Below, in pieces: positions 1 through 51,099 of a stretch of DNA of 64,000 bases (position 1 is its first letter; the number at the start of each line of letters is the position of its first letter). Location: assembly GCA_035331565.1 (NCBI GenBank), contig DAOLKO010000010.1, forward strand, positions 15,682 to 79,681. Direction: 5' to 3'. The notes under the pieces are model-generated. The model ran no database searches. It was not told the origin of the DNA and worked only from the letters and a program-made list of their open reading frames with translations. This DNA comes from Blastocatellia bacterium. Its GTDB lineage: Bacteria > Acidobacteriota > Blastocatellia > RBC074. The translations under genes were made by a program, and so were the position numbers.

Positions 1-751
1 TTCCAAAGCCTACCGCGCCGCGAAAAAACTGTTTGACGAAGGCGCAATGGGCAAAGCCGTGATGGCGCATTCGGCCTGGGATCAAGGCGACATCTGGCCG
101 GATCGTCGCGGCAAACGCAGCGACTGGAAATCGCAACTGGATTACGAAATCCAACACTGGTACTTCTTCAAATGGCTTTGCGGCGACCACATCGTCGAAC
201 AGAACATCCACAACATTGACGTCATCAACTGGTTCCTGGGCGAACACCCTGTGCGCGCGACAGGCATCACGGCGCGCTTCAACAAATACGAATTCGGCGA
301 CATCAACGACCACTTCGCCATCACCTACGAGTATCCGAACGGCATCCTTTCGTCGAACACCTGCGTGCAAGTAAACGGCGTTGAAGGCGACGTTTCCGAA
401 ACCATTCGCGGAACCAAAGGAACATTCACCACCACCGCCGGCAAAGGCGGCACGGGCGGCGTCCGCATCGAAGCGGCGCGCACGCGCAAAGACCCGAATC
501 CCGCACCGATTTACAAATACGAGGGCGGCGACGACAAACACTACGACCAGGAAGCTGCTACCTTCGTTACCAGCGTGCTGGGCAAAGGCGAGGGCGAAGA
601 TAAATATCGCAACGACACGAAGTACGGCGTCGAAAGCACCTTCACCGCCATCCTCGGTCGTGAAGCCGCTTATCGCAAAACCGCGCTGAACTGGAACGAA
701 TTGTGGAACGAAAACAAGAAACTCGCCTTCAAACCTGAATCGAAGGCGTAA
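1..751 (+). CDS. C-terminal part of a Gfo/Idh/MocA-like oxidoreductase. The gene starts upstream of the window.
   Basis: The frame is open from nt 2 with no stop and continues the listed ORF 47..751. The pattern HSAWDQGDIWPDRRG...HIVEQNIHNIDVINWFLGEHPV resembles the C-terminal dimerisation domain of Gfo/Idh/MocA enzymes. Confidence 0.55.
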   Translation, partial: SKAYRAAKKLFDEGAMGKAVMAHSAWDQGDIWPDRRGKRSDWKSQLDYEIQHWYFFKWLCGDHIVEQNIHNIDVINWFLGEHPVRATGITARFNKYEFGDINDHFAITYEYPNGILSSNTCVQVNGVEGDVSETIRGTKGTFTTTAGKGGTGGVRIEAARTRKDPNPAPIYKYEGGDDKHYDQEAATFVTSVLGKGEGEDKYRNDTKYGVESTFTAILGREAAYRKTALNWNELWNENKKLAFKPESKA

Positions 752-768
752 CGATTGGATCGGCAAGG

Positions 769-818
769 CAGACGCGAAGAGCGCAAGAAGACTCGTCTTC
801 TTGCGCTCTTCGCGTCTG
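769..818. terminator. Perfect 24-bp inverted repeat with a 2-nt loop, immediately downstream of the oxidoreductase stop. Likely a terminator or stabilising hairpin.
   Basis: cagacgcgaagagcgcaagaagac-tc-gtcttcttgcgctcttcgcgtctg read directly from the sequence. No T-run follows. Confidence 0.45.
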
Positions 819-876
819 TGGACTCCGGCGTTACAATCGCCTCGCCGCAACCCAATGCCGAAAGGAGCAAGGTCAA

Positions 877-2052
877 GTGAAAATCAAACAACTGGATGTC
901 GCCGGATTCAGATCTCTGAAGAATGTGAGTTGGAAGCCAGGGGATTTGAACGTAGTGATTGGCCAAAATGGAACCGGCAAATCGAATTTGCTGCGGATAC
1001 TTGAATTAATCTCCGCCGCCGCCCAAGGCCAACTTGCAAAATATATCGAAGCCCTAGGTGGTATGAGCGCAATATTGTGGGATGGCCTAGCACCTTCTAT
1101 TTTTTTGGGACTAGAGATTGAGCAAGATAGTTCTTCCATGTTTAGAGAAGAAACTTATAAGTTGAAAATTGATGATAATTTTTTTGACCCACTGATAGAC
1201 CGCGAAGTATGGTCTGCTAGAAAACACGCTGATGATAAGAACTTAGTTTTAATAGATCGGGATGCTAAACAAGTGGTTTTCAATGGAAAACCTATTAGTT
1301 CACCTGCAAAAATTCCACAGCAGGAGACATTACTTTCCCTGCTTAATTCGCTGAGCTTCGAGGGAGACGCCTTCGATGAGTCAAGCTCTGCTTACTTATT
1401 TCGCCGTCAGCTAGGAGCATTAAGCGTTTACCACGATTTCGATGTAAGCCAAAACTCCTCAATTAGGCAGCCTGCTGTCCCTCGATATGAACACACAATT
1501 GAGCCAACGGGTCGGAATCTCGTTACGGTTTTGCATACTCTCTATTCTGGCAATCGCGCTTTTAAGCAAAATATCGATTTAGCAATGCGAGCCGCTTTCG
1601 GCAATGATTATGAAGAGATTACCTTTCCTCCTGCTTCAGACCGGCGCATTCAATTCCGTATTCGCTGGAAGACTTTGCGCCGGGAGCAGTCTGCCGCTGA
1701 TCTTTCCGACGGAACGCTACGCTTTCTTTTAATACTCGCAATCTTGTCAATGCCTTTACCATCAAGCCTGATCGCAATTGACGAACCTGAAACAGGACTA
1801 CATCCGTCAATGTTGCCGATTATTGCTGAGTTTGCAGTTGAAGCGTCGTCTCGTACCCAAGTTATTTTCACTACACATTCGCCGCAGTTTCTCAGCGCCT
1901 TCGGCAAGCATCCTCCGACAACAACTGTGGCGGAATGGCAAAATGGCGAAACGTTGCTTCACACGTTAGATAAGGAGCGGTTGGATTATTGGCTTGAAGA
2001 TTATTCCCTCGGAACGCTCTTCGAGTCCGGCGAGTTGGAGGCGATGACGTGA
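877..2052 (+). CDS. ABC/OLD-like AAA ATPase (AAA_21-type).
   Basis: GTG start sits after an AAAGGAG RBS. Walker A is GQNGTGKSNLL, the ABC-signature-like motif is LSDGTLRF and Walker B is LIAIDEPETGLHP. The gene is markedly AT-rich compared with its neighbours. Confidence 0.8.
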   Translation: MKIKQLDVAGFRSLKNVSWKPGDLNVVIGQNGTGKSNLLRILELISAAAQGQLAKYIEALGGMSAILWDGLAPSIFLGLEIEQDSSSMFREETYKLKIDDNFFDPLIDREVWSARKHADDKNLVLIDRDAKQVVFNGKPISSPAKIPQQETLLSLLNSLSFEGDAFDESSSAYLFRRQLGALSVYHDFDVSQNSSIRQPAVPRYEHTIEPTGRNLVTVLHTLYSGNRAFKQNIDLAMRAAFGNDYEEITFPPASDRRIQFRIRWKTLRREQSAADLSDGTLRFLLILAILSMPLPSSLIAIDEPETGLHPSMLPIIAEFAVEASSRTQVIFTTHSPQFLSAFGKHPPTTTVAEWQNGETLLHTLDKERLDYWLEDYSLGTLFESGELEAMT

Positions 2053-2681
2053 AATTCATACTGTTGGTCGAAGGTGATGCCGAGCGAATAGTTTTGCCTG
2101 ACTTCTTTAGACGTTGGCTTAATCCAAAATTGAAGCACCCTGTTAGTATCAAAGCCGTCAAACTCTCCGGCAGCGGTGGTTACTTGAAAGAGTTCGCTGG
2201 GCGAGTAAAAAAGCAGCTTTGCGATTCCGATGCTCACGATCTCATTGCCGTCATAGGGTTGCTTGACCTTTACGGACTACCTCAAAATTTCTATCCAACT
2301 AATTTGCCCAGTGCTGATGAGCGTTATGCTTGGGCGAAGCGAGAACTGGAAAGCCGAGTCGGCCAAGCTAGGTTTCGCCAGTTTTTCGCCGTGCATGAAC
2401 TGGAAGCTTGGTTGCTGAGCGATCCGACTATTTTTCCCAGAGAAGTAAGGGAAAACTTCCCTGCCGCAGTCTCCAGTCCCGAATCCGTCAATTTCAATCA
2501 GCCGCCGGGTGTTCTTTTGGAAAGGTTATATGGGCAAAAGCTGAAGAAATCCTATCAAAAGACTGTTCACGGAAATGACTTGTTCGCCAAACTTGATCCA
2601 GAAACCGCATGTCAAAAGTGCCCGCATTTGAGGGAACTGTTGGACGAAATGCTGGACTTTGCCAAACAGAGTGGGAATTGA
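2049..2681 (+). CDS. DUF4276-family protein (Toprim-like), partner of the upstream ATPase.
   Basis: Its GTG start overlaps the ATPase stop (GTGA). The ~210-aa product begins MKFILLVEGDAERIVLP, typical of DUF4276. It is co-oriented and translationally coupled with the ATPase. Confidence 0.55.
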   Translation: MKFILLVEGDAERIVLPDFFRRWLNPKLKHPVSIKAVKLSGSGGYLKEFAGRVKKQLCDSDAHDLIAVIGLLDLYGLPQNFYPTNLPSADERYAWAKRELESRVGQARFRQFFAVHELEAWLLSDPTIFPREVRENFPAAVSSPESVNFNQPPGVLLERLYGQKLKKSYQKTVHGNDLFAKLDPETACQKCPHLRELLDEMLDFAKQSGN

Positions 2682-4857
2682 GTCATTTCCATTTTATGTT
2701 TTTGCCGTGTTAACACTCGATACACCACTCATTGATCTGCACCTGCACCGCCTGCCGCGCATCGGCAAGAAGACCTCGGAGCATCTGGCGCTGGAAATCG
2801 CCGCCATCACCGCCCAAGCCAATCCGCGCAAAGCCACGGTGGAAGATCTGCTGCATTACCTGCCGATGCGTTACGAAGACCGGTCGAATCTGGCACGCAT
2901 TTCCGAATTGCAGGATGGCCAGGAGGCTTCCGTAGAAGTGAAGGTGCGTGTCGGCGGCATCATTCCGCTCAAAGGCGGTCGGCTAAAAATGTATGAGTTC
3001 ATTGCCACGGACGGCGAAGGCCAGGTGCGCGCCTTCTGGTGGAATCAAATCTTCCTGAACAAAGTCTTTACGCGCGGTTCGCGCGTCATCCTCTTCGGCC
3101 AATGGAAATGGAATAAGTATAAAGGTTACTTTGAAGTCGAAAACCCGGAATACGAACTACTGACCGATGAAGACGAGGACGCCGAAACCACTGCGATGCA
3201 CACCGCGCGGCGAGTGCCTGTGTACCGCAAACTCGGCGATTATCGAACACGACAACTTCGCTCCATCTTTCATCACGTTTTGACCAACCTGCCGCCGGAG
3301 TTTGCGGAGTCTTTGCCGGAGGAAATTCTCACGCGCTGTTCGCTGCCGCCGCGCGGCGAAGCAATTCGCAACGCCCACTTCCCTGCGGACGATGCGCCCA
3401 TCACCGATTACAACCAGATGCGTTCGCCGGCGCATCGGCGGCTGATTTTTGAAGAACTGTTCTGGCTTTCAATGGCGCTCGGCATTCGTCGCAGCCAGCG
3501 AGTCAAAGAACCGAAAGGTGAATACATCGAAATCACAGACCGCGTCCGCGAAGCCGTGCGCCGCATTCTGCCGTTCACACCGACCAATGCGCAGAAACGT
3601 GCGATCAAAGAAATTGTGGATGATATGACTGGTCAAGAGCCTATGAACCGTTTGCTACAAGGCGATGTCGGCAGCGGCAAAACTATCGTCGCCGTGCAGG
3701 CGATGGTGATTTCCGTCGAGAACGGCTACCAAGCGGCGCTGATGGCTCCAACTGAAATCCTGGCCGAACAACACGCGCGCAACATCAAACGCTGGCTGGC
3801 TCCGGGCAATTATTGCGTCGAACTGCTGATCGGCAGTCTGAAGACCAAAGAAAAACAAACCATCTACAAAGCCTTAAAATCCGGCGAAATTGACATCATC
3901 GTCGGCACGCACGCACTGATTCAGGAAGGCGTTGAGTTTCATAAATTGGGCTTGGCCGTGATTGACGAACAACATCGTTTCGGCGTGATGCAGCGCGCGG
4001 AACTGCGCCGGCGCGGCATCAATCCCGATGTGCTGGTCGTAACAGCCACGCCCATTCCGCGCAGCCTGGCAATGACCGTCTACGGCGACCTGGAAGTTTC
4101 CATCATTGATGAGCTTCCGCCAGGCCGCACGCCAATCAAAACCTTCGTGCGCGGAGACGACCGGCGCGACAAGATTTACGAATTCATCCGCGAACAACTC
4201 AAGACCGGACGACAAGCCTACATCGTGTACCCAATCATCGAAGAATCCGAAAAGCTTGATCTGCGAAACGCGACCGAAATGTACGAAAACCTGCGACAGG
4301 AAATCTTTCCCGAATACCGAATCGGTCTTCTTCACGGAAAGATGAAGCCTGCGGAGAAAGAGGAAATCATGAAGGCGTTTACTGCCAACGAAACCCAGAT
4401 TTTGGTAGCAACCACTGTTATCGAAGTTGGAGTAGATGTGCCGAACGCATCGGTAATGCTGATTGAACACGCTGAGCGATTCGGTCTGTCACAACTCCAT
4501 CAACTTCGCGGAAGAGTTGGTCGTGGAGCGGCGGAAAGTTACTGCATTCTGCTGGCGCAGTTTTCCAAAACCAAAGAAGCGCAAGAACGGCTGAAAATCA
4601 TGGAGCAAACCACGGATGGGTTTAAGATCGCTGAGAAAGATTTGGAGATTCGCGGCCCCGGCGAAGTGATGGGGACGCGGCAATCAGGCTTACCCGAATT
4701 TCGAATCGCCAACATTGTTCGCGACCAGAAGATTTTGGAAATGGCGCGCCACGAAGCGAGCTGTATGCTTGAAGAACGTCGTAACACCCGCGAGACCGAC
4801 CTATTAATTCGATACGTGCGGAACCAACCGCGATTCGGCCTAGCTCAAATCGGATAA
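2659..4857 (+). CDS. recG: ATP-dependent DNA helicase RecG.
   Basis: Motifs LHYLPMRYEDRS (wedge/N-terminal region), helicase motif I GDVGSGKT, DEQHRFG, and C-terminal QLHQLRGRVGRG. The exact start is uncertain: ATG 2659 overlaps the DUF4276 end, and GTG 2707 is an alternative. Confidence 0.9.
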   Translation: MPNRVGIESFPFYVFAVLTLDTPLIDLHLHRLPRIGKKTSEHLALEIAAITAQANPRKATVEDLLHYLPMRYEDRSNLARISELQDGQEASVEVKVRVGGIIPLKGGRLKMYEFIATDGEGQVRAFWWNQIFLNKVFTRGSRVILFGQWKWNKYKGYFEVENPEYELLTDEDEDAETTAMHTARRVPVYRKLGDYRTRQLRSIFHHVLTNLPPEFAESLPEEILTRCSLPPRGEAIRNAHFPADDAPITDYNQMRSPAHRRLIFEELFWLSMALGIRRSQRVKEPKGEYIEITDRVREAVRRILPFTPTNAQKRAIKEIVDDMTGQEPMNRLLQGDVGSGKTIVAVQAMVISVENGYQAALMAPTEILAEQHARNIKRWLAPGNYCVELLIGSLKTKEKQTIYKALKSGEIDIIVGTHALIQEGVEFHKLGLAVIDEQHRFGVMQRAELRRRGINPDVLVVTATPIPRSLAMTVYGDLEVSIIDELPPGRTPIKTFVRGDDRRDKIYEFIREQLKTGRQAYIVYPIIEESEKLDLRNATEMYENLRQEIFPEYRIGLLHGKMKPAEKEEIMKAFTANETQILVATTVIEVGVDVPNASVMLIEHAERFGLSQLHQLRGRVGRGAAESYCILLAQFSKTKEAQERLKIMEQTTDGFKIAEKDLEIRGPGEVMGTRQSGLPEFRIANIVRDQKILEMARHEASCMLEERRNTRETDLLIRYVRNQPRFGLAQIG

Positions 4858-4952
4858 CTTGCGTCCCGAATCGGTTAGGAGGGAGCCTCTCGGCTCCCGT
4901 CCTCCCACACTACCGGACGTGCGGTTCCGCATCCGGCGGTTCAGGTTGAAAG

Positions 4953-5225
4953 ATGTTGAAGTTTTCGCAGTTGATCCGTGTGCCGGCGGCAAGCCGGCGT
5001 GACTTTGCTCGAACGGCCGGATGGCGCTCGGATGTGTGTGATGCTCACGCAACCGGAGGTAGCCCTACTTTCCCATCTGTGCTCAGAGTTTCTTCGTCCC
5101 TGACCGCGATGATCCGAATAGTCCCTCAAATTCGGATTTTGCCGGCCTGCGAGCCTGTTGACTTTCGCAAGGGGTTGGATTCGCTCCTCGCCTTGTGCAA
5201 AGACCCGCTCGGACAAGACTCATGA
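4953..5225 (+). pseudogene. IS66-family relic: orf1-like C-terminal piece fused in frame to the first ~37 aa of TnpB (IS66 Orf2), then a stop.
   Basis: IVPQIRILPACEPVDFRKGLDSLLALCKDPLGQD is homologous to the TnpB copy at 13220 (MIQLVPQLRILLACQPVDFRKGLDSLLALCKGSLAQD). The upstream RRDFARTAGWRSDV parallels RRVLERADGARMTL at 13100. Confidence 0.6.
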
Positions 5226-5745
5226 TTCGTGGCGAGCGTTCGCGTCCGCGCGTCGGCGAATACCACCGGCCCACACAACGAAACGCCCCAGAGTCGCTCA
5301 CCGTCGCGTTGGCAGAGGGTGATTGCTTCTTTGAAGTAGGTTGCGGCACCTTGCTGATCAACCTGAGCTGTCAAGGGATTGACCAGGCACAGCGACAGGA
5401 ATATCAGGCCGAACCACCACGCTGATCTGATGGTGTCCCTGTCAATAGTTCCTCCAAATCATGCGGATCCCTGTGAAGGATTGGCCAACGGTGTTTCAGA
5501 CCGTTATGCGAGTGAAATTCAGTGGCGATTCGTACGGCCCAAGCAGCCTGTGACAACACAACACAGGCATCGGACTTTGGTTCGGCCTTGTTTTGTCCGT
5601 CCAAGCAGAAATCCGAACTACACCTTCTCGGCAAAGTAATAGTAGTTCTCTCCCTCGTCCTGGGCGTCAGTGACCCAGGTCAGGCCGGCATCGCGCAACA
5701 AGCGCTCATACGTATACTCGCCGAGGGATTGCGACCGGTGCCCGG

Positions 5746-6498
5746 TCATGGCGTCCAACCATAGGCAATGCTGGGATGGGTTTCGGGCACCGGCTGCCAG
5801 TCGCCGCCGAAGTGAATATAGGTCAGGCTTTCGTTTTTGTTTACATCGAGGAATCCGGTTTCGGTGTAGGTTTCCTTTAGCCCAAGCCTAGCAATGATTC
5901 TGTCCTGAAGGGCTTCGGCGTAGGTTTTGCCCGTGATCTTTTCGAGAATCAGCGTTAACAGGAAATAGCCCGAATTGCTGTAGGAATTCTTGGTGTCCGG
6001 TTCAAACTCCGGCGTGCCTTTGGCGGTCAGGGCGAGCATTTCATCTTTCGTGATTCCATTCTTCCAGTTTCTTTGCGGAGCCGAATCGCGCCTGACGTTT
6101 GGAATACCGCTGCGATGCGAGAGCATTTGCAGAACGGTAATTTTCGCGGCGTTCGGAACCTGCGGAAAGAACTTGTCCAGCGTATCCGTCAGCTTCAATT
6201 TCTTTTCCTCGGCGAGCTGCATCACCATCGCGGAGGTGTACATTTTGCCAATCGAAGCGATGCGGAAGCGGCTCGTCGAGGTCAGCGTTTTTTTCGTCGT
6301 TCCCTCAATCTGGGCATAACCGATGGCGCGACTGTAAACCACCTTGCTGTCCTGAGCGATGGTGAGACTTCCCATCGCTTTCTTCTTCTCAGCGAGCCGG
6401 TCAAAAAAACTGGTCGAGTTTGGCTGTATCCAGCGACTGGCCGTAGCCTGCGGTGAAGGACGCCAGCATCAGTATCGTTACGAATGGTATTTTGCTTT

Positions 6499-40068: not shown

Positions 40069-40175
40069 AACGGCTTCGGCTCGCCTTACGCCTGATTAGC
40101 TACCCGGCGGACAGCGGTGAAACCTTCGCTCCGTTGGAGAGCCGAAAACACGAAGGACACCTGGAAGGGGAGACA

Positions 40176-41450
40176 ATGCAAAATGAGCAAGAGTTTCGTC
40201 AGATCATAGAAAGGATTGATGAAGTGACGCGGGCGCTTTTGCAAGTAAGGGATTACAAGGCGGAGGCGATTGACCTTAATGGTGCAGACGCTCCTTTGAA
40301 ACTTCTAGCGCGAACTTGGCGGGACACTCAGTTACCAAGTCAGTCTGATGAAAAGCTCGCCAATATGATACGGCAGCGGTTAGAGGAAACATTATCTCCA
40401 ATCTTGTGGATTGCTACGGGACAAATAGTTTCTGGTGCGCTCGAATACGCTACGCGCGAAACTGGGGCAACCGTAATGCCCACCTTTGATGGACTTTCAA
40501 GGGTGGGCATAGCTGAGCAACCATATTCCGAAGATGAAGAAGAGGTTTGGTTGATTGGTTTAGCGGAGAGAATACGAATAAAAGGAACGCTTCAGGTGAG
40601 CCTAAATTGGGGAGAGATTGAATCTATTCTTGATGATTTTTTTGGCTCGTCTCTTTCAGCGTGTAAAACTGAGCAAGAAGCAAAAACGGCTTGGAATAGC
40701 TTTCTCAAGAAGGAGCAAAAGCACCTCAAAAAAAGAATGGGGGATTCACCGGTAGAAAAAATCGTAGAGACCAACCGGAAGGTTGAAATGCTGACGGATA
40801 AACAAAGAGAGCAGATGCGAAGCGATCTGGTAAAACTCGCTTCGCAAAACTTCAAATTAAACATAGATCACGTTATTCGTTGTGCTATTGCGGCCAATCT
40901 GTTCTTGAGCCTGGTGTATTGGGAATACGCTTTTGATCGTGAAAAAGGAAGAGCCGAGAAGGAAGTTCAGCAATCACTGCCCGGAGTAGAAGAACTAAGA
41001 GACATAATAGGTAAGAGATTGAATGACTGGCTTATTCAACCGCTTCCAAAAAGACCGCGCCTAGGTAAACAAGCAAAAGCTGATTTAAGCCAACTGCGCC
41101 AGTTTTACGAGGAAGTTATTGGGGATTGGCGTGATGCCTTTAGCTTCTGTCGTGAGGCTCTCAATTCTCGTTCAGCAACCCGCCGTGCAACTTGGAAAGA
41201 AGACCTCAAAAAATACTATCCCAGTCTGCGAGATTACGACGATTTGATTGAGCGGCTACAGCCCATAGAGAACTGGCCAGAGCAGGTAGCTGCGAAATGT
41301 TCAGAGCAGGGGGGCGAGGATAAGCCTGAAGACATCGCTTACGAACATGCTGCACGACTATGCGACGCAGCCAATTACACGTACAAGCTGTCTTCGCTTA
41401 TTGAGGAATACCGCAAGCAAGGGCGACAAAAAAAAGAAGAAAAAGAATGA
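40176..41450 (+). CDS. Island-encoded hypothetical protein (~425 aa, acidic, AT-richer).
   Basis: ORF with a GGAGA RBS before ATG 40176. No recognisable domain. Confidence 0.45.
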   Translation: MQNEQEFRQIIERIDEVTRALLQVRDYKAEAIDLNGADAPLKLLARTWRDTQLPSQSDEKLANMIRQRLEETLSPILWIATGQIVSGALEYATRETGATVMPTFDGLSRVGIAEQPYSEDEEEVWLIGLAERIRIKGTLQVSLNWGEIESILDDFFGSSLSACKTEQEAKTAWNSFLKKEQKHLKKRMGDSPVEKIVETNRKVEMLTDKQREQMRSDLVKLASQNFKLNIDHVIRCAIAANLFLSLVYWEYAFDREKGRAEKEVQQSLPGVEELRDIIGKRLNDWLIQPLPKRPRLGKQAKADLSQLRQFYEEVIGDWRDAFSFCREALNSRSATRRATWKEDLKKYYPSLRDYDDLIERLQPIENWPEQVAAKCSEQGGEDKPEDIAYEHAARLCDAANYTYKLSSLIEEYRKQGRQKKEEKE

Positions 41451-41896: not shown

Positions 41897-42195
41897 AGTC
41901 AAAAAACCAAAAGCCGCCAGCGGCGGGAATCGCTGACGGCTCTCGAAATCGAACTAAAAATTACGAGCCGGATTCTGCCACGCTGCGCCGACAAACGGCA
42001 ACAACAAATTTGCCGGAGTGCCCGTGTCCCGTATGCGCGCGCAGTTATCGTTACGCATGGGGCTGGTTGATGGTGCTGCCGACGGCGCGAGTCGTTGACC
42101 TGTGCGCGTATTGCACGCGCACTTTGCGCTACGGCTCAGCGTCGGAGCGTCAGGCAATTGCCGACGCGATTGCAACGCGGGAGGTGGCACTATGA
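41893..42195 (+). CDS. Small Cys-rich protein (putative zinc-ribbon).
   Basis: CPCPVC...CAYCTR is a four-Cys arrangement. Its stop overlaps the primase ATG (ATGA). Confidence 0.35.
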   Translation: MKSKNQKPPAAGIADGSRNRTKNYEPDSATLRRQTATTNLPECPCPVCARSYRYAWGWLMVLPTARVVDLCAYCTRTLRYGSASERQAIADAIATREVAL

Positions 42196-44801
42196 ACAGG
42201 CTTGATTACGCGAAAGACTATCAAGGCAGGGGCTACACGCCTCTGCCGCTTCCACTCAAGGCGAAGAATCCAGGTTTTCATGATTGGCAGAAATACCAGC
42301 CGGTTAATGGCCGGCTTGAGCGTGATTTCAGCAACGAAGGCAACATCGGGTTGCTACTCGGCAAACCGTCGGGCTGGCTGATTGACGTGGATTTGGATTG
42401 GCCGGAATCGCAAAGGCTCGCGTCTGCTTTCCTGCCTGAAACGACAGCCAAAAGCGGGCGTGAATCCGCGCCGCTGTCGCATTACTGGTATCACTGCGAA
42501 ACCGGAACGAAGAAGTTCAGCGATCCGACCAAGCCGGGCGGCGACGACCAGCGCGCGATGATTGTCGAGCTTCGGTCAACGGGATTGCAGACGGTTGTCG
42601 AGCCAAGCATTCATCCGTCTGGCGAGCGGTACGTCTGGCAAGGCGAATTGATGCCCGCGCAAATTGACGCTGCAACGCTTCAACGCGCGGTTGCGCGGTT
42701 GGCGGCGTGTGCGCTTGTCGCTCGACATTGGCCGCAAGGCCGCCGACACGATGCGGCGCTGGCGTTGGCCGGTGCGCTGTTTCGCAACGCCTGGGCGCGC
42801 GCCGATGTCGAGCGGTTCATACTGTCGGCGGCTGGTGTGGCGGGCGATGAAGAAATCGAAGACCGCAAACGCGCCATTGCCGACACGGAAGAAAAGCTCC
42901 GCAGAGGCGAACACGTGACCGGCTTGCCAACCTTGTCGGAGTTCATCGGCGAAAAGACCGTCGGCGCGCTGGTCAAATGGTTAGGGCTGACAGCCCAGCC
43001 GGAAAAGCCTGCCGAAGCGATAAGCAATCAATCACGCGAGCCGGTTGCCTGCCCTTACAAAGCCAACGGCATCGGCCTGGTGTGGCTGAAGCCCGTCGCC
43101 ACAAGAGACGGCGCGGCGGAGCCGCTTGCCGTTCAGCTTACCAACTTCATCGCCGAAATCACTGGCGAAGTGTGCCGCGATGATGGTGCGGAGCAAACGC
43201 GGGTTTATGAGATTACGGCGCAGCTTGCGGGCGAAACCGCTTCGCACAAAGGCGCAGTCGTTGCCGAAGAGTTCGGCCTTTTGAAATGGCCCGCCACGAT
43301 TTTGGGCGCAAGGGCTGTCATCTATCCGAGCAAAAAAGAGCATACCGGCGTAGCGATTCAACTCTTGTCGCGCAAGATCGAAAGCCGTCGTGTCGTGGCT
43401 CATACAGGCTGGCGCAACGATGGCAACGGCTGGCGTTATTACCACGCGGCGGGCGCAATCGGCGCGGAAGGACTGATTGACGCCGAAGTTGAGTTGCCGA
43501 CTGCGCTGGCGGCTTATTCATTGCCTGCGCCGCCAGTGGGCGAAACGCTGAAGGATACAGTATCGGCAGTCATTGGGCTGGCCGGTGTGGGGCCGGATGA
43601 TGTGACGCTGCCCACGTTGGGCGCAGTTTGGGCAAGCGTGCTGACGGGCGCGGATTTTTCTATTTATCTAGCCGGGCGCACAGGCAGCGGGAAAAGTATT
43701 TTGACGGCGCTCTTTCTGTCCTTGTTCGGCTCCGGCTTTGACTTCAACGCGCTGCCCGCGTCGTGGTCTTCAACCGGCAACAGCCTGGAATCGTTGGCGC
43801 ACGCGGCAAAAGATTGCGTGTTAGCCGTTGACGATTTTTGTCCGCAAGGTTCGGCGGCAGACCAAGCGCGATTGCAGGCAGCGGCGGATAGAATCTTCCG
43901 CGCACAAGGCAACCATTCCGGGCGATTGCGTTGCCGGACAGACGGAACGGTCAGAGCGGTCAAACCGCCGCGCGGTCTGATTCTCTCGACCGGCGAAGAT
44001 ATTCCGCACGGCCAGAGCCTGCGCGCTCGCACGCTCATCCGCGAAGTCGTCAGGGAGTCGTTGGACTGGCCAGCCATCACAGAGGCGCAAGCAATCGCTC
44101 GGCAAGGCGTTTACGCGCAAGCAATGGCCGCTTTTCTGCAATGGCTGGCGACTGGCGACCGAATCGAAAAGCTTCGAGCATCTGCGCCGGATGATGTTTC
44201 GCGCTGGCGCGAAGAATGGACAACGCGCGGTCTGAATGGTCACAAGCGCAATGCGTCAACGCTGGCTCAATTGGCGCGCGCCTGGCATTGCTGGCTCGGT
44301 TTTGCCTGTGAAGCCGGAGCCATCACGCCCGAAGAGAGCAAGAAGCTCTGGCGGCGCGTGTGGGCTGCGCTGGATGCGGCGGGCAAAGGGCAGGAGCAAT
44401 ATCAGGCGAGCGAGAATCCGGCTTCCCGCTTCATTGAATTGATTCAAGCTGCGCTGGCCAGCGGCAAGGCTCATCTGGCGGCGACAGACGGCGGTAAGCC
44501 GGATTCTGCCGATGCGCAAGCTTTTGGCTGGCGCGATGGCGAACCGCAAGGGGAACGAATCGGATGGCTTGACGGCGACGACCTGTATTTGCAACCGGAT
44601 GCGGCCTATTTATTGGCTCGGCGAATGGCGACAGATGGCGAAGGGCTGACCGTGTCGAGCCAAACGCTGTGGAAACGACTCAACGAAGCCGGGTTGCTGG
44701 CTTCGACTGATACGGCGCGAAAGACCAATAAAGTCCGCAAAACAATCGCCGGAAAATCTAATCCGGTGATTCATCTGCGGTCGGAAATTTTCGCCGGGTA
44801 G
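42192..44801 (+). CDS. Replication protein: N-terminal bifunctional primase-polymerase-like domain plus a central P-loop NTPase (D5/DUF3987-like).
   Basis: Start at ATG 42192 after GGAGGTGG. The N-terminus YTPLPLPLKAKNPGFHDWQKY...GLLLGKPSGWLIDVDLD is Prim-Pol-like. Walker A is AGRTGSGKS and Walker B LAVDDF. Confidence 0.65.
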   Translation: MNRLDYAKDYQGRGYTPLPLPLKAKNPGFHDWQKYQPVNGRLERDFSNEGNIGLLLGKPSGWLIDVDLDWPESQRLASAFLPETTAKSGRESAPLSHYWYHCETGTKKFSDPTKPGGDDQRAMIVELRSTGLQTVVEPSIHPSGERYVWQGELMPAQIDAATLQRAVARLAACALVARHWPQGRRHDAALALAGALFRNAWARADVERFILSAAGVAGDEEIEDRKRAIADTEEKLRRGEHVTGLPTLSEFIGEKTVGALVKWLGLTAQPEKPAEAISNQSREPVACPYKANGIGLVWLKPVATRDGAAEPLAVQLTNFIAEITGEVCRDDGAEQTRVYEITAQLAGETASHKGAVVAEEFGLLKWPATILGARAVIYPSKKEHTGVAIQLLSRKIESRRVVAHTGWRNDGNGWRYYHAAGAIGAEGLIDAEVELPTALAAYSLPAPPVGETLKDTVSAVIGLAGVGPDDVTLPTLGAVWASVLTGADFSIYLAGRTGSGKSILTALFLSLFGSGFDFNALPASWSSTGNSLESLAHAAKDCVLAVDDFCPQGSAADQARLQAAADRIFRAQGNHSGRLRCRTDGTVRAVKPPRGLILSTGEDIPHGQSLRARTLIREVVRESLDWPAITEAQAIARQGVYAQAMAAFLQWLATGDRIEKLRASAPDDVSRWREEWTTRGLNGHKRNASTLAQLARAWHCWLGFACEAGAITPEESKKLWRRVWAALDAAGKGQEQYQASENPASRFIELIQAALASGKAHLAATDGGKPDSADAQAFGWRDGEPQGERIGWLDGDDLYLQPDAAYLLARRMATDGEGLTVSSQTLWKRLNEAGLLASTDTARKTNKVRKTIAGKSNPVIHLRSEIFAG

Positions 44802-44805
44802 GGGT

Positions 44806-45065
44806 CTAGTGGAGAAAACCCGACAAACCCGACATTTGGGCAAAAACGGTTTCAATGTCGGGTTTTCGTTGTCGGGTTTTTCGGAGAATCTGGCGAAAAT
44901 GCCGAAAATGCGGCCACAGAAACTAAGTCCCTTCAATAGTTTACCAATCAATGTCGGGTTTGTCGGGTTTTCTCCACATAAGAGCGGTCTGGGATAAATT
45001 CCAGGCGTTCAATGTCGGGTAGGCTTCAAAAAGCCGACACCAAAACCCGACAAAAACCGACAAGG
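44806..45065. repeat. Iteron-like block with at least 10 copies of the CCGACA/TGTCGGG heptamer in both orientations.
   Basis: Representative copies are aaacccgacaaacccgacattt, caatgtcgggttttcgttgtcgggttttt, caatgtcgggtttgtcgggtttt, caatgtcgggtaggc and gccgacaccaaaacccgacaaaaaccgacaagg. Confidence 0.6.
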
Positions 45066-45082
45066 AATAGGGAGCGGGCAAA

Positions 45083-45493
45083 ATGGGAAACGAGATTTTG
45101 ATTGAAATTGAGAGGCTTTCCACAAAGCAACAACGAGCGATTGAAGCGTTGTTGACCGAGCCAACAACGCGCGCAGCGGCGGCTGCGGCAGAGGTCTCCG
45201 AAGCAACAATCTGGCGCTGGCTGGCGGAGCCGGAATTTTCTATTGCGTATCGTGCGGCGCGTGGGCGCTTGCTGGAATCCACGTTGACGGCGTTGCAATC
45301 GGCCAGCGTGGATGCCGTGGTTTGTTTGCGCGAAATTCTGAACGACAAAACTGCGCAGGTTTCCGCTCGCGTCAGCGCGGCCAAGTCGGTTCTGGAACTC
45401 GGATTGAAGGCGCGCGAAGTTCTGGAAGTTGAAGAGCGGCTGGCTTACCTGGAAAAGGCGTTGGAACTCAAAAACGCAAAGAGGAGTGCATGA
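45083..45493 (+). CDS. HTH-domain protein (regulator or terminase-small-subunit-like).
   Basis: AAAAAEVSEATIWRWL HTH followed by a coiled-coil C-terminus. Confidence 0.4.
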   Translation: MGNEILIEIERLSTKQQRAIEALLTEPTTRAAAAAAEVSEATIWRWLAEPEFSIAYRAARGRLLESTLTALQSASVDAVVCLREILNDKTAQVSARVSAAKSVLELGLKAREVLEVEERLAYLEKALELKNAKRSA

Positions 45494-45993
45494 CGACTGC
45501 AAGAAGACTTTCGGCGATGGAGCCGCTGATTGAACCCGAACGAGCATTGCTTCGCCATAACCGGGCAATTCTGCTGTCGGCAATTCCCGAAGTGATGGCC
45601 AAGCTCGGAAAGACCGAAGAAGAGGCGCGGCGGCTTTTGTTGCTACTCTGGTCGCCTGAAGAAGCGGCGCTGGCGGCGGATGATTGGGAAATCAATCCGC
45701 TGGCGCTGGACTTGCTCAAGAAGCTGAATCAGCCCAACGGACGGCAGAAGCTCATCGAATCGGGCTTGCAACGGGGAGCGGATGCGTTTGGCCTGAGTGT
45801 TGAAGATTTGATTTGTCTGGTTTGCCTTGACCCGCGTAACTCTCTGGCGTCCAAGCTGGAACTGGTCAAAATCGCCAACGAACGGAAGATGCCCGCAATC
45901 CTTTTGAAGCTTCACGGCGAAAATCCGGTTGAACGGATAGACCGCCTTGCAGATAGTGTGGCTAATCACGTTGTAGATGACCTGACTGGATGA
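45490..45993 (+). CDS. Island hypothetical protein.
   Basis: ORF coupled to the upstream gene by an ATGA overlap. Confidence 0.35.
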   Translation: MTTARRLSAMEPLIEPERALLRHNRAILLSAIPEVMAKLGKTEEEARRLLLLLWSPEEAALAADDWEINPLALDLLKKLNQPNGRQKLIESGLQRGADAFGLSVEDLICLVCLDPRNSLASKLELVKIANERKMPAILLKLHGENPVERIDRLADSVANHVVDDLTG

Positions 45994-46100: not shown

Positions 46101-47027
46101 TTGCCAAAGCCCTTAAATAGCTTAGCTATGGAAAACTATAACTATGCGGCTATCCTCCTCGGATTAGCATCCTGTTATTTCTTCCTGTTTCTGGTGCCCT
46201 TTTCAATTTCCTGCATAATTATTTATTGGATTCAACCTCTGTCCCGAAATGCATTTCTGCTCGTCTCGCTCTTACCTTGTTTAGCAGGAACACTATTGAC
46301 GCAGGATTGGAAGTTGGAGGCAGCTATAGTTTTCGCATTGTTCCAATTCAGCATCATAGGTTTCCTGGAATTGTGGATGCTGTTTTTGTTTTTCCGAAAA
46401 TTGATCAAGCCACCAATAACATATATGTCAACACCACCTTTACCAACAACACAATTAAAAGAACCGATTCCGCCAGATTTCGATTTTGAATTTTGGAAGG
46501 ATCGGCTAATTGATCGCACCATCAGAAGCTACCTATCAGACACGCAAAAGCAACAATTGAACGACCTTCGCTTAAGTGATACTCAGCGGGATCAGATTAA
46601 GTACGGCACAAGGCCGCCCCAAGAGATAAATGATTTTTTGGAAGATGCAATAAAAGATGTCGAAGTTGCGGTCACTAACGACGACGGTGAAGCCTTGCGA
46701 AAGGCTATTGAACAAGCTCATCAGAAACTTACAAAATTTGAATCAGAGAGGGTAAAGAGAAGCAACGAGTTCCTTAATAAGCTTACAAATTCGTTTCGCC
46801 GAGCGAATGGTGCTCCTATAGTTTTTGTTGGCTTATTCATAATTGCTTTCGGGTTCTTGTTTTCAAGAGGATATAGCCAATCTATGGGAGTCTTGGGAAG
46901 CTTGCCGCGTATGGTTGTGGACGTCGGCAACCTCAGCATTGCAACCAAATGGGTATTACTTTTTGGGATTGGGCTGTGCCTTTGGGGATTTTACGCGCGT
47001 TTTAGTGATACTCAGAAGAATAACTAA
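46101..47027 (+). CDS. AT-rich integral membrane protein of unknown function.
   Basis: Four N-terminal TM helices, a central charged coiled region, and two C-terminal TM helices. The DNA is strongly AT-rich. Confidence 0.45.
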   Translation: MPKPLNSLAMENYNYAAILLGLASCYFFLFLVPFSISCIIIYWIQPLSRNAFLLVSLLPCLAGTLLTQDWKLEAAIVFALFQFSIIGFLELWMLFLFFRKLIKPPITYMSTPPLPTTQLKEPIPPDFDFEFWKDRLIDRTIRSYLSDTQKQQLNDLRLSDTQRDQIKYGTRPPQEINDFLEDAIKDVEVAVTNDDGEALRKAIEQAHQKLTKFESERVKRSNEFLNKLTNSFRRANGAPIVFVGLFIIAFGFLFSRGYSQSMGVLGSLPRMVVDVGNLSIATKWVLLFGIGLCLWGFYARFSDTQKNN

Positions 47028-47030
47028 AAC

Positions 47031-47849
47031 TTGTTCAGAGGGTTCGCTCTAATGATCAATATGGATACTAAGCAGCTAAAAACTATGTTTTGGAGCTTGG
47101 CATTAGGCGCATGCGGTTTCTGGATTTGGCTTAACCAAGGCGGAAATCCTATGCCTGATTTCTATTTACTAGATGATGCGGTTATTGCCAAAGGGTATAT
47201 TGTTGAAATTACTGAGAGTGCTGGTGAAGAGGGCGACAGTACTTTTACCGCCGAATATCAATTTAAGCTTCCTGACGGTCGAGAGTTAACTAATCGAACA
47301 GACAAGTTTGATGAAGAAATCATCGAACAAAAAATGCCATATCCCATTGAAATTGAATATTACAAAGCTAATCCAGAAATCAACAGGATCAATGGAACTG
47401 GAAGTCGCACATTTACAGAGTGGCTTTGGCGAAGTTTAGGAGGAGGAGTTGTTTTGCTCGCATTATGCTTAAGTCCAAGCATCTGGTTATTCCGATGCGG
47501 TTGGCAGGACATGAGACAAAAACGCGAAATTAAAAGCCGGAAATTGAGAAAAGCTCAGAAGAAAGCGGCCAAGCGACTGGTGAAAGGAGCGGCGGAGGCT
47601 GCGCAGCTAACCTCTATACAGCAGGAAGCCTCACAGATGGCCGATACGCCGACCAACATTCAGATACCGGATCGGGAGCAATTTCCGCCGGGTATTCTGG
47701 GGGATAGTATGTATCGGATGTCTGCTGACCGTGTGCGAAAGTTGTTGGCGAGGGAGGCCAAAAGGGCGGCGAAGGCTACGAAGCCTACGCAACAAGTTAC
47801 TCAAGCGGATGCAGATGAGACAACGTCAAATAACTTCAAAACCAGGTAA
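47031..47849 (+). CDS. AT-rich membrane protein with a DUF3592-like topology (TM, beta-domain, TM, then a Lys/Ala-rich tail).
   Basis: TM1 WSLALGACGFWIW, then a ~100-aa soluble domain, then TM2 LGGGVVLLALCL, then a basic tail. Confidence 0.4.
   Translation: MFRGFALMINMDTKQLKTMFWSLALGACGFWIWLNQGGNPMPDFYLLDDAVIAKGYIVEITESAGEEGDSTFTAEYQFKLPDGRELTNRTDKFDEEIIEQKMPYPIEIEYYKANPEINRINGTGSRTFTEWLWRSLGGGVVLLALCLSPSIWLFRCGWQDMRQKREIKSRKLRKAQKKAAKRLVKGAAEAAQLTSIQQEASQMADTPTNIQIPDREQFPPGILGDSMYRMSADRVRKLLAREAKRAAKATKPTQQVTQADADETTSNNFKTR

Positions 47850-51025: not shown

Positions 51026-51099
<74 letters not shown>

Follow-up and report, generated by a model that had tools for sequence, protein, structure and literature searches.

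A HEC-01-type ATPase and DUF4276 gene pair upstream of recG in Blastocatellia, a candidate defence module with exchanged alleles

HEC-01 (Hma-embedded candidate 01) was described as an ABC ATPase together with a TOPRIM protein with a conserved metal site, found within Hma systems (Payne et al. 2024 preprint, 10.1101/2024.01.29.577857). In such ATPases, Inserts 1 and 2 probably set specificity (10.1101/2024.01.29.577857). For one representative, from a cold seep, protection of E. coli B was seen with at least one of the phages T7, T5 and T4 (PMC12881386). DUF4276 has been placed among the Toprim families, with Mad4 of MADS as a homologue (PMC12065111; PMC11464382); deletion of mad3 or mad4 lowers MADS defence (10.1101/2023.03.30.534895; PMC12065111). 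In PD-T4-4, an ATPase is paired with a PD-(D/E)xK nuclease (PMC12137116; PMC10952713; 10.1101/2025.07.10.664194). Burman et al. list AbiL among the systems of an ATPase and a Toprim protein, and treat RloB (PF13707) as a Pfam family apart from DUF4276 (PMC11464382). AriB of PARIS and P2 Old are tRNases (PMC11464382; 10.64898/2026.07.10.737580), and P2 Old binds aberrant DNA structures (10.64898/2026.07.10.737580). Here we analysed a 64,000-nt stretch (the window) from the metagenome-assembled genome of a Blastocatellia bacterium (Acidobacteriota), in which two adjoining genes, A and B, form a cassette at positions 877-2681. We consider it probable that the pair is a defence module consisting of a sensor ATPase together with a nuclease of the Toprim type, and with some confidence we assign it as a HEC-01-type split member of the OLD-nuclease superfamily. 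The features of the cassette are as follows.

877-2052, + strand: gene A, 391 aa, GTG start, OLD/SMC-type ABC ATPase (HEC-01A-like), presumed sensor
961-984, + strand: Walker A motif GQNGTGKS, A residues 29-36; G29, N31, G32, G34, K35 and S36 invariant in 112 homologues
1087-1476, + strand: hypervariable insert of A, residues ~71-200, beta-rich in the model, between Walker A and the remaining ATPase core
1702-1716, + strand: ABC signature LSDGT, A residues 276-280; L276, S277, D278 and G279 invariant in the 112 homologues
1768-1785, + strand: Walker B motif LIAIDE, A residues 298-303; E303 invariant and D302 nearly invariant in the 112 homologues
1876-1878, + strand: H-loop H334 of A, invariant in the 112 homologues
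2049-2681, + strand: gene B, 210 aa, GTG start, DUF4276 Toprim-fold protein (HEC-01B-like), presumed nuclease effector
2049-2052, + strand: GTGA start/stop overlap of A and B, 4 nt, read from the sequence; translational coupling
2070-2072, 2082-2084 and 2265-2267, + strand: conserved acidic residues E8, E12 and D73 of B; H116 and E119 follow strand 4

As listed above, A carries the Walker A, Walker B, signature and H-loop motifs of an ABC ATPase of the OLD superfamily. Its Pfam matches were AAA_21 (E value, 5.6e-34) and AAA_15. Among the PADLOC models, HEC-01A (PDLC04177) was matched at 5.2e-63, with residues 20-387 aligned to positions 24-388 of the 393-position profile, and weaker matches were obtained with AriA, mad3 (9.9e-24), AbiLi (4.1e-19), GajA and Old. 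The NCBIfam model MAD3 was matched at 7.3e-27 and 94.6 bits, below its equivalog cut-off of 420. The AlphaFold model of A had a confidence score (pLDDT) of 87.3, and the best Foldseek match to it in the PDB was the OLD nuclease of Thermus scotoductus (6p74, E 3.4e-14), with SMC and Rad50 heads, retron Eco8, GajA and PtuA ranking next.

B matched the whole of Pfam DUF4276 (1.6e-28, positions 1-191 of 192) and, with its N-terminal residues 3-43, OLD-like_TOPRIM (6.8e-5). The PADLOC model HEC-01B (PDLC04188) was matched at 3.1e-19, residues 3-204 covering positions 15-226 of the 230-position profile. All 10 PADLOC matches of B were to HEC-01B models except two weak ones to the Toprim part of GajA; the PADLOC component models of AriB, AbiLii, mad4 and PD-T4-4 gave no match, nor did any NCBIfam model, and RloB and DUF4435 gave none in Pfam. 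Residues E8, G9, E12 and D73 of B were invariant in 113 sequences, with H116, E117 and E119 nearly so, and the B model resembled the C-terminal region of BpOLD, GajA, AriB and Ts OLD. The folds, profile matches and motifs of the two proteins together argue that the pair is a split member of the OLD-nuclease superfamily. Much of this had been anticipated in the original prediction, made from the sequence alone: the open reading frames (ORFs), the OLD-like ABC ATPase and its GTGA coupling to a DUF4276/Toprim-like gene of ~210 aa were all confirmed, as were the Walker and LSDG motifs. That the second ORF might match neither DUF4276 nor any Toprim-like fold, an outcome named there as part of a refutation, was not what we found, B being a full-length DUF4276 protein with a predicted Toprim fold.

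The architecture also occurs among catalogued candidate defence systems, as had been suggested, under the PADLOC name HEC-01. Scored from the individual models, A falls on HEC-01A and B on HEC-01B, and the two genes are adjacent on the same strand; neither an Hma nor another defence system surrounds them, the flanks being an oxidoreductase gene and recG. The names put forward at first, AbiL-like or PD-T4-4-like, did not survive, because B is a DUF4276 protein without an AbiLii, RloB or PD-T4-4 match. AbiLii is an RloB-type Toprim protein. For AbiL, A also met the AbiLi model only weakly (4.1e-19). PD-T4-4 was rejected because its effector is a PD-(D/E)xK nuclease and B has the Toprim fold of DUF4276, and PARIS because B matched neither AriB nor DUF4435. 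MADS was rejected on the score of A (94.6 bits vs 420), on the lack of a mad4 match in B and on the neighbours.

We then examined how the pair is distributed, scanning one genome per GTDB species for homologues. Eighty loci with a B homologue (47-68% identity) were found in many phyla, including Acidobacteriota, Lentisphaerota, Desulfobacterota, Planctomycetota, Chlorobiaceae, Armatimonadota, Myxococcota, Proteobacteria and Nitrospiraceae, and in every one of these species-representative genomes (80/80) an A homologue lay immediately 5' of B. The 4-nt NTGA overlap of the two genes was present in 79 of 82 cassettes, again from many phyla. The neighbours of the 70 cassettes outside the recG-linked clade described below were varied: their 127 adjoining ORFs matched 170 Pfam families, each in at most four ORFs, and no conserved third gene was found among them. 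A minority of these neighbours were defence genes, namely TIR, type III and type IIG restriction-modification, PglX/PglZ, Septu, mad3/mad8 and HerA. Occurrence in many phyla, obligate A-B pairing and varied neighbours indicate that the pair is a self-contained, horizontally mobile two-gene unit. The subfamily was of modest extent, with 575, 243 and 115 clusters (50% identity) at E values of at most 1e-3, 1e-10 and 1e-30, respectively, of 1.84 billion representatives. In tblastn searches with B, phage records gave no match and plasmids gave only six distant DUF4276 genes (24-28% identity), and hence there is no evidence that the subfamily rides on known phages or plasmids.

At the window locus, identical copies of which are present in several assemblies, the pair is followed by recG and preceded by an oxidoreductase gene.

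47-751, upstream of the cassette: C-terminal part of a GFO/IDH/MocA oxidoreductase, the 3' portion of its gene (Pfam)
2707-4857, + strand: recG (Pfam RecG_wedge, DEAD, Helicase_C and RecG_dom3_C)

The recG start is best placed at 2707, as judged by the fit to 716-aa homologues, which leaves 25 nt after the B stop on the shared strand. A promoter and terminator scan found no terminator-like site in this gap, and recG is probably co-transcribed with A-B.

The original prediction held that an AT-rich cassette had been dropped into conserved housekeeping synteny between an oxidoreductase gene and recG, which can be read as the recent arrival of a mobile defence cassette. The cassette does have a GC content of 46.4% (A, 45.8%; B, 47.6%), compared with 55.6% for the window, 55.9% for the oxidoreductase gene and 54.2% for recG, and its GC content at third codon positions (GC3) is 0.44 in A and 0.49 in B, compared with 0.73 and 0.62 in the oxidoreductase gene and recG, respectively. 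These values, together with the occurrence of the family in many phyla and unrelated contexts, which implies horizontal movement, speak for such an insertion. The description of the cassette GC as far below that of the flanks was fair, although the deficit is not unique in the window: sliding windows of cassette size were equally low in 1.8% of cases, and two further stretches (~39.7-41.4 kb and ~45.3-47.9 kb) match or undercut it. The minimum within the cassette, 0.387 at 1051-1350, falls in the hypervariable insert of A.

The relatives of the locus tell against a recent arrival. A-B lay immediately upstream of recG in all 15 distinct loci found whose RecG was 76-87% identical to that of the window (L009, L012, L013, L014, L015, L017, L018, L019, L020, L024, L033, L044, L096, L097 and L137; L016 was counted as L009, and L010 and L011 are partial copies of L009). 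One of them, L137, is syntenic with the window on both sides of the cassette. At RecG loci of 65% identity or less the pair was absent; in L132, for example, the gene lying between tsaE and recG is an unrelated one on the reverse strand. Of the 70 cassettes of other lineages, none adjoined recG (0/70). Neighbour-joining trees of 82 cassettes grouped those linked to recG in one clade, with bootstraps of 29/30 for A, 29/30 for B and 30/30 for A and B combined. The gap between B and recG was ~10-70 nt in all linked loci except L017. In that locus, a 972-aa ORF with an IS66-family DDE transposase domain and an N-terminal RNase_H_2/Cas4-like region is located between B and recG (2929-5847), so direct adjacency of B and recG is not indispensable.

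Upstream of the cassette, the neighbour varies. It is yjeF-tsaE in L012, L013, L014 and L033, at least tsaE in L044, whose contig begins inside this gene, Uma2 in L009, and the oxidoreductase gene in the window and L137. The fuller order, GFO - yjeF(nnr) - tsaE - A - B - recG, is preserved in L033 (3347-6790), and yjeF-tsaE is missing between the oxidoreductase gene and A in the window (47-876) and L137. The older upstream neighbour is therefore tsaE rather than the oxidoreductase gene, and the absence of yjeF-tsaE from the sub-lineage of the window is most simply read as a later loss or local rearrangement. The GC deficit was likewise found across the family. It was -0.05 to -0.11 in all recG-linked loci except L017, whose flanks include the IS66 insertion; in the unlinked loci it averaged -0.059 and was negative in 59 of 64. 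Low GC is thus no evidence of recent arrival. Taken together, these results make a recent insertion barely credible, and the picture of a cassette dropped into housekeeping synteny has to be given up, since all relatives with RecG of at least 76% identity carry the pair in the same place and it is the upstream neighbour that changes. The original prediction had accepted that it would fail if the pair sat at one locus in all relatives with host-like GC; the first half applies to all relatives found, and the second does not, the GC being lower than that of the host genes. The simplest reading is that the pair was acquired once, long ago, beside recG (between tsaE and recG in the loci that keep the older order) and has been retained vertically since. 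As a separate observation, the record of the L024 contig (CAYYDG010000060.1) bears the label "uncultured Heliomicrobium sp.". Its A and B match those of L096 at 100% identity, with the same RecG comparisons, and its RecG shares 84% identity with that of the Blastocatellia window. Probably, this is an acidobacterial contig that was mis-binned.

Between the oxidoreductase gene and A lie the following elements.

769-818, + strand: perfect hairpin with a 24-bp stem, arms 769-792 and 795-818, 100% complementary
832-837, + strand: TACAAT, possible -10 element for an A-B(-recG) transcript, read from the sequence; inside GTTACAATCG and conserved in L137
861-867, + strand: Shine-Dalgarno sequence AAAGGAG, 9 nt 5' of the GTG of A and kept in L137

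The hairpin had been described as separating the cassette from the upstream gene. It is real, with a fold z-score of -5.7 that no shuffled sequence equalled, and it is the sole one of its quality within the 64 kb. Because no T-run follows it on the 3' side, the scan did not call it a terminator. An Rfam search of positions 1-6000 returned nothing relevant to it (a spurious mir-1976 match scored 27 bits against a 71-bit cut-off). A repeat scan of the intergenic regions of the relatives reported no hairpins, which we treat as a miss of the tool, since the alignment shows homologous hairpins 3' of the oxidoreductase gene in L137 and L033. Compensatory changes preserve their pairing (A:T to G:C in L137, G:C to A:T in L033). 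In L033 the gene that follows the hairpin is yjeF rather than A, which argues that it belongs to the end of the oxidoreductase gene and not to the cassette. From the alignment, then, the hairpin is assigned to the upstream GFO/IDH/MocA gene as a terminator-like element, and its reading as a cassette boundary does not hold. A sigma-70 consensus scan called no promoter upstream of A, and TACAAT may be the promoter element of A, as judged by eye.

We next compared how the parts of the locus have diverged. Identity to the window was 76-87% for RecG, 54-61% for A (69% in L137) and 54-69% for B. Between closely related loci, the divergence was concentrated in either A or B, in amino acid identity and in synonymous substitutions per site (dS) alike.

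L044 and L033: identity of RecG 94%, A 58%, B 96%; dS of A[201-end] 1.68 and of A[71-200] saturated, against 0.29 for B and 0.61 for RecG
L020 and L024: identity of RecG 96%, A 68%, B 96%; dS of A[201-end] 1.97, against 0.27 for B and 0.39 for RecG
L012 and L013: identity of RecG 96%, A 91%, B 69%; dS of B 1.15, against 0.31 for A and 0.41 for RecG
L009 and L017: dS of B 1.75, against 0.68 for A and 0.37 for RecG

The replaced pieces had dS values about three to seven times those of their neighbours and were therefore imported by recombination rather than merely fast-evolving. Sliding nucleotide identity for three close, independent pairs (window/L137, L044/L033 and L020/L024) showed sharp boundaries: it was 0.36-0.65 in the middle of A, and the first 100-150 nt and last 200-350 nt of A, as well as B and recG, stood at the background of 0.8-0.95. 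In the comparison of the window with L137, the insert of A had a nucleotide identity of 0.48-0.57 and its flanks 0.77-0.91. Across homologues, the mean pairwise identity of A residues ~71-200 was 0.14-0.42, compared with 0.66-0.91 in the motif blocks (residues 1-45 and 211-360). The best match of the insert of the window among ~200 sampled A homologues was 46%, compared with 84% identity to L137 at either end of A. The ratio of nonsynonymous to synonymous substitution (dN/dS) was 0.04-0.2 in the conserved parts, showing that A and B are under purifying selection. These comparisons indicate that pieces of the cassette, either the middle and C-terminal part of A or B, have been replaced by alleles from the same clade, the swapped piece usually being A residues ~71-200. 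An immune sensor would be expected to show this pattern, in which the enzymatic core is conserved and a surface insert recombines, and residues ~71-200 are the presumed specificity determinant, in line with what has been published on Inserts 1 and 2.

This pattern also bears on the possibility that the pair is a selfish addiction module, similar to a toxin-antitoxin system and without an anti-phage role, which is kept because its loss is toxic or because recG transcription needs its promoter. The Pfam text for AAA_21 reads "putative AbiEii toxin, Type IV TA system", Payne et al. found no defence by HEC-01 (10.1101/2024.01.29.577857), and long retention at a single site with probable read-through into recG would make loss costly. 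Allele replacement is centred on the surface insert of the ATPase, and the other parts are under purifying selection, which fits selection for a changing specificity better than addiction. In addition, the cold-seep HEC-01 was protective (PMC12881386), and the relatives Mad3 and Mad4 are required for MADS defence (10.1101/2023.03.30.534895). We regard an addiction module as unlikely.

Another possibility is that the pair is a housekeeping accessory of RecG in DNA repair, similar to SbcCD or Rad50-Mre11 and processing branched DNA with the helicase. The order A-B-recG is tight and co-oriented throughout the lineage in all loci but L017, the gap between B and recG contains no terminator-like site, the fold of A is like that of Rad50 and SMC heads, and P2 Old also recognises aberrant DNA structures (10.64898/2026.07.10.737580). 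However, 0/70 cassettes outside the lineage adjoin recG, RecG relatives of 65% identity or less lack the pair, and L017 tolerates an IS66 transposase in the gap between B and recG. Nor would a repair factor be expected to have swapped alleles and an insert that is hypervariable and recombining, and we consider this role very unlikely. There is similarly little likelihood that A-B-recG is a functional three-gene unit, in which the pair would guard RecG or RecG-dependent DNA structures, or would recruit the helicase as GajA uses GajB. In the guarding version, the pair would fire on phage inhibition of RecG or on branched or over-replicated DNA, as P2 Old does on RecBCD defects. The support for a functional tie to RecG is positional and comes from one lineage. 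If true, it would explain why a normally mobile module stays at recG while its sensor part is exchanged.

For the defence module that we favour, PARIS AriA/AriB and P2 Old suggest a mechanism in which the ABC ATPase A would keep B, the small Toprim nuclease, inactive within a complex. The folds and the conserved residues of catalytic type that such a mechanism calls for are present in A and B. The variable insert of A (residues ~71-200) would recognise a phage-derived trigger, and ATP-dependent activation would free B or switch it on for metal-dependent cleavage of nucleic acid. The target of B may be tRNA, by analogy with AriB and Old, or possibly DNA as in Gabija; our confidence in a substrate, tRNA or DNA, is much lower than that in the module. 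As the outcome, the infected cell or the phage would be stopped, in an abortive or growth-arrest type of defence. The complex, the trigger, the nuclease substrate and the anti-phage activity we infer alike.

Several points weigh against a defence module. In B, the canonical DxD of Toprim domains is reduced to one Asp (D73-L74-Y75), and the geometry of its putative metal site is derived from the model and from published statements on HEC-01B. A profile search of PDB sequences with B found no relative, so its Toprim assignment rests on Pfam, PADLOC and the fold comparison. The HEC-01 representative of Payne et al. protected against no phage tried (10.1101/2024.01.29.577857). The pair in the window lies outside any defence island, between an oxidoreductase gene and recG, and its persistence at one site, while RecG has diverged down to 76% identity, is a degree of stability unusual in defence systems. 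Finally, B of L097 (~4336-4969) is frameshifted near residue 47 (GGATACATATAAAGAGG), with A and recG intact; on this single metagenome contig the frameshift may be gene decay or equally a sequencing or assembly error.

Some observations were made elsewhere in the window. Directly past the recG stop, on the opposite strand, positions 4870-4941 (- strand) match domain V/VI of group II introns (RF00029) with 36.1 bits and an E of 1.9e-4, the gathering score being 40 bits. They lie in a gene-poor stretch of ~0.9 kb (4858-5745) that has no Pfam-recognisable ORF and in which identity to L137 falls to 0.3-0.47 right past recG; it may be the remnant of a group II intron or other insertion. The ORF at 4953-5225, taken by eye as an IS66 TnpB-like fragment, was dropped because Pfam gave no match. 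A 209-aa ORF of the beta-lactamase family (5746-6375, - strand), which is also called in other assemblies of the same genome, covers only positions 18-206 of the 329-position profile and looks like a truncated gene or gene fragment. Farther along, an 899-aa ORF with Prim-Pol and DUF927 domains (42102-44801, + strand) adjoins the lowest-GC block of the window (45.3-47.9 kb, ~44%), where the ORFs at 45026-45583, 45490-45993, 46101-47027 and 47031-47849 have no Pfam match. The sole tRNA gene of the window, tRNA-Arg(cct) (51026-51099, - strand), is located ~3 kb beyond this block, and together the three resemble an integrated mobile element or a genomic island. The third low-GC stretch (39.7-41.4 kb, ~48%) contains a 438-aa ORF (40134-41450, + strand) without a Pfam match.

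For annotation, the locus is best named a HEC-01-type split OLD-family system, and the PD-T4-4 and AbiL names should be dropped. The HEC-01 candidate family was already catalogued in PADLOC; what is new is the corrected name, the ancient insertion shared by the lineage, the reassigned hairpin and the allele swapping centred on the ATPase insert. With a series of related alleles at one chromosomal site, the lineage offers a natural experiment on a candidate defence family that has been little characterised. In A, the swapped segment (residues ~71-200) points to the probable site of specificity and provides natural chimeras for testing HEC-01 sensing. A caution also follows: low GC with housekeeping neighbours need not mean recent insertion, the low GC being here a trait of the family and the insertion an old one. 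The conserved and probably co-transcribed link to recG is of interest, as OLD-family systems are by now known to sense the status of DNA repair.

Compared with the described systems, the pair is closest to HEC-01, with which it shares the order, first an ABC ATPase and then a small TOPRIM (DUF4276) protein, and profile matches nearly end to end in both. Unlike HEC-01, it is found inside neither Hma nor any other defence system and is fixed beside recG in one acidobacterial lineage. MADS likewise has an AAA_21-type ATPase, Mad3, and a DUF4276 protein, Mad4 (PMC12065111; PMC11464382), and A matches the mad3 models; A is, however, far under the MAD3 cut-off, B has no mad4 match, and the mandatory MAD6-8 (10.1101/2023.03.30.534895) are not beside the pair. 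PARIS, of class 4 of the OLD family, differs in its effector, AriB being a DUF4435 protein of ~300 aa and B a DUF4276 protein of 210 aa. AriA, at ~53-55 kDa (PMC11464382), is roughly 480 aa as estimated from its mass, compared with 391 aa for A, and its coiled-coil insert builds a hexamer (PMC11464382), whereas the insert of A is modelled as beta-rich. AbiL and PD-T4-4 are likewise two-gene systems headed by an OLD-type ABC ATPase, with effectors of the RloB-type Toprim and PD-(D/E)xK kinds, respectively; B is neither. In OLD nucleases of classes 1-3, among them Old (class 1) and GajA (class 2), the ATPase and Toprim parts are fused in a single polypeptide, whereas all 82 cassettes (82/82) encode them in two ORFs. 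In Gabija, GajB is a UvrD-like helicase of superfamily 1 and always part of the system, whereas RecG is a housekeeping helicase of superfamily 2 that is linked to the pair in one lineage only.

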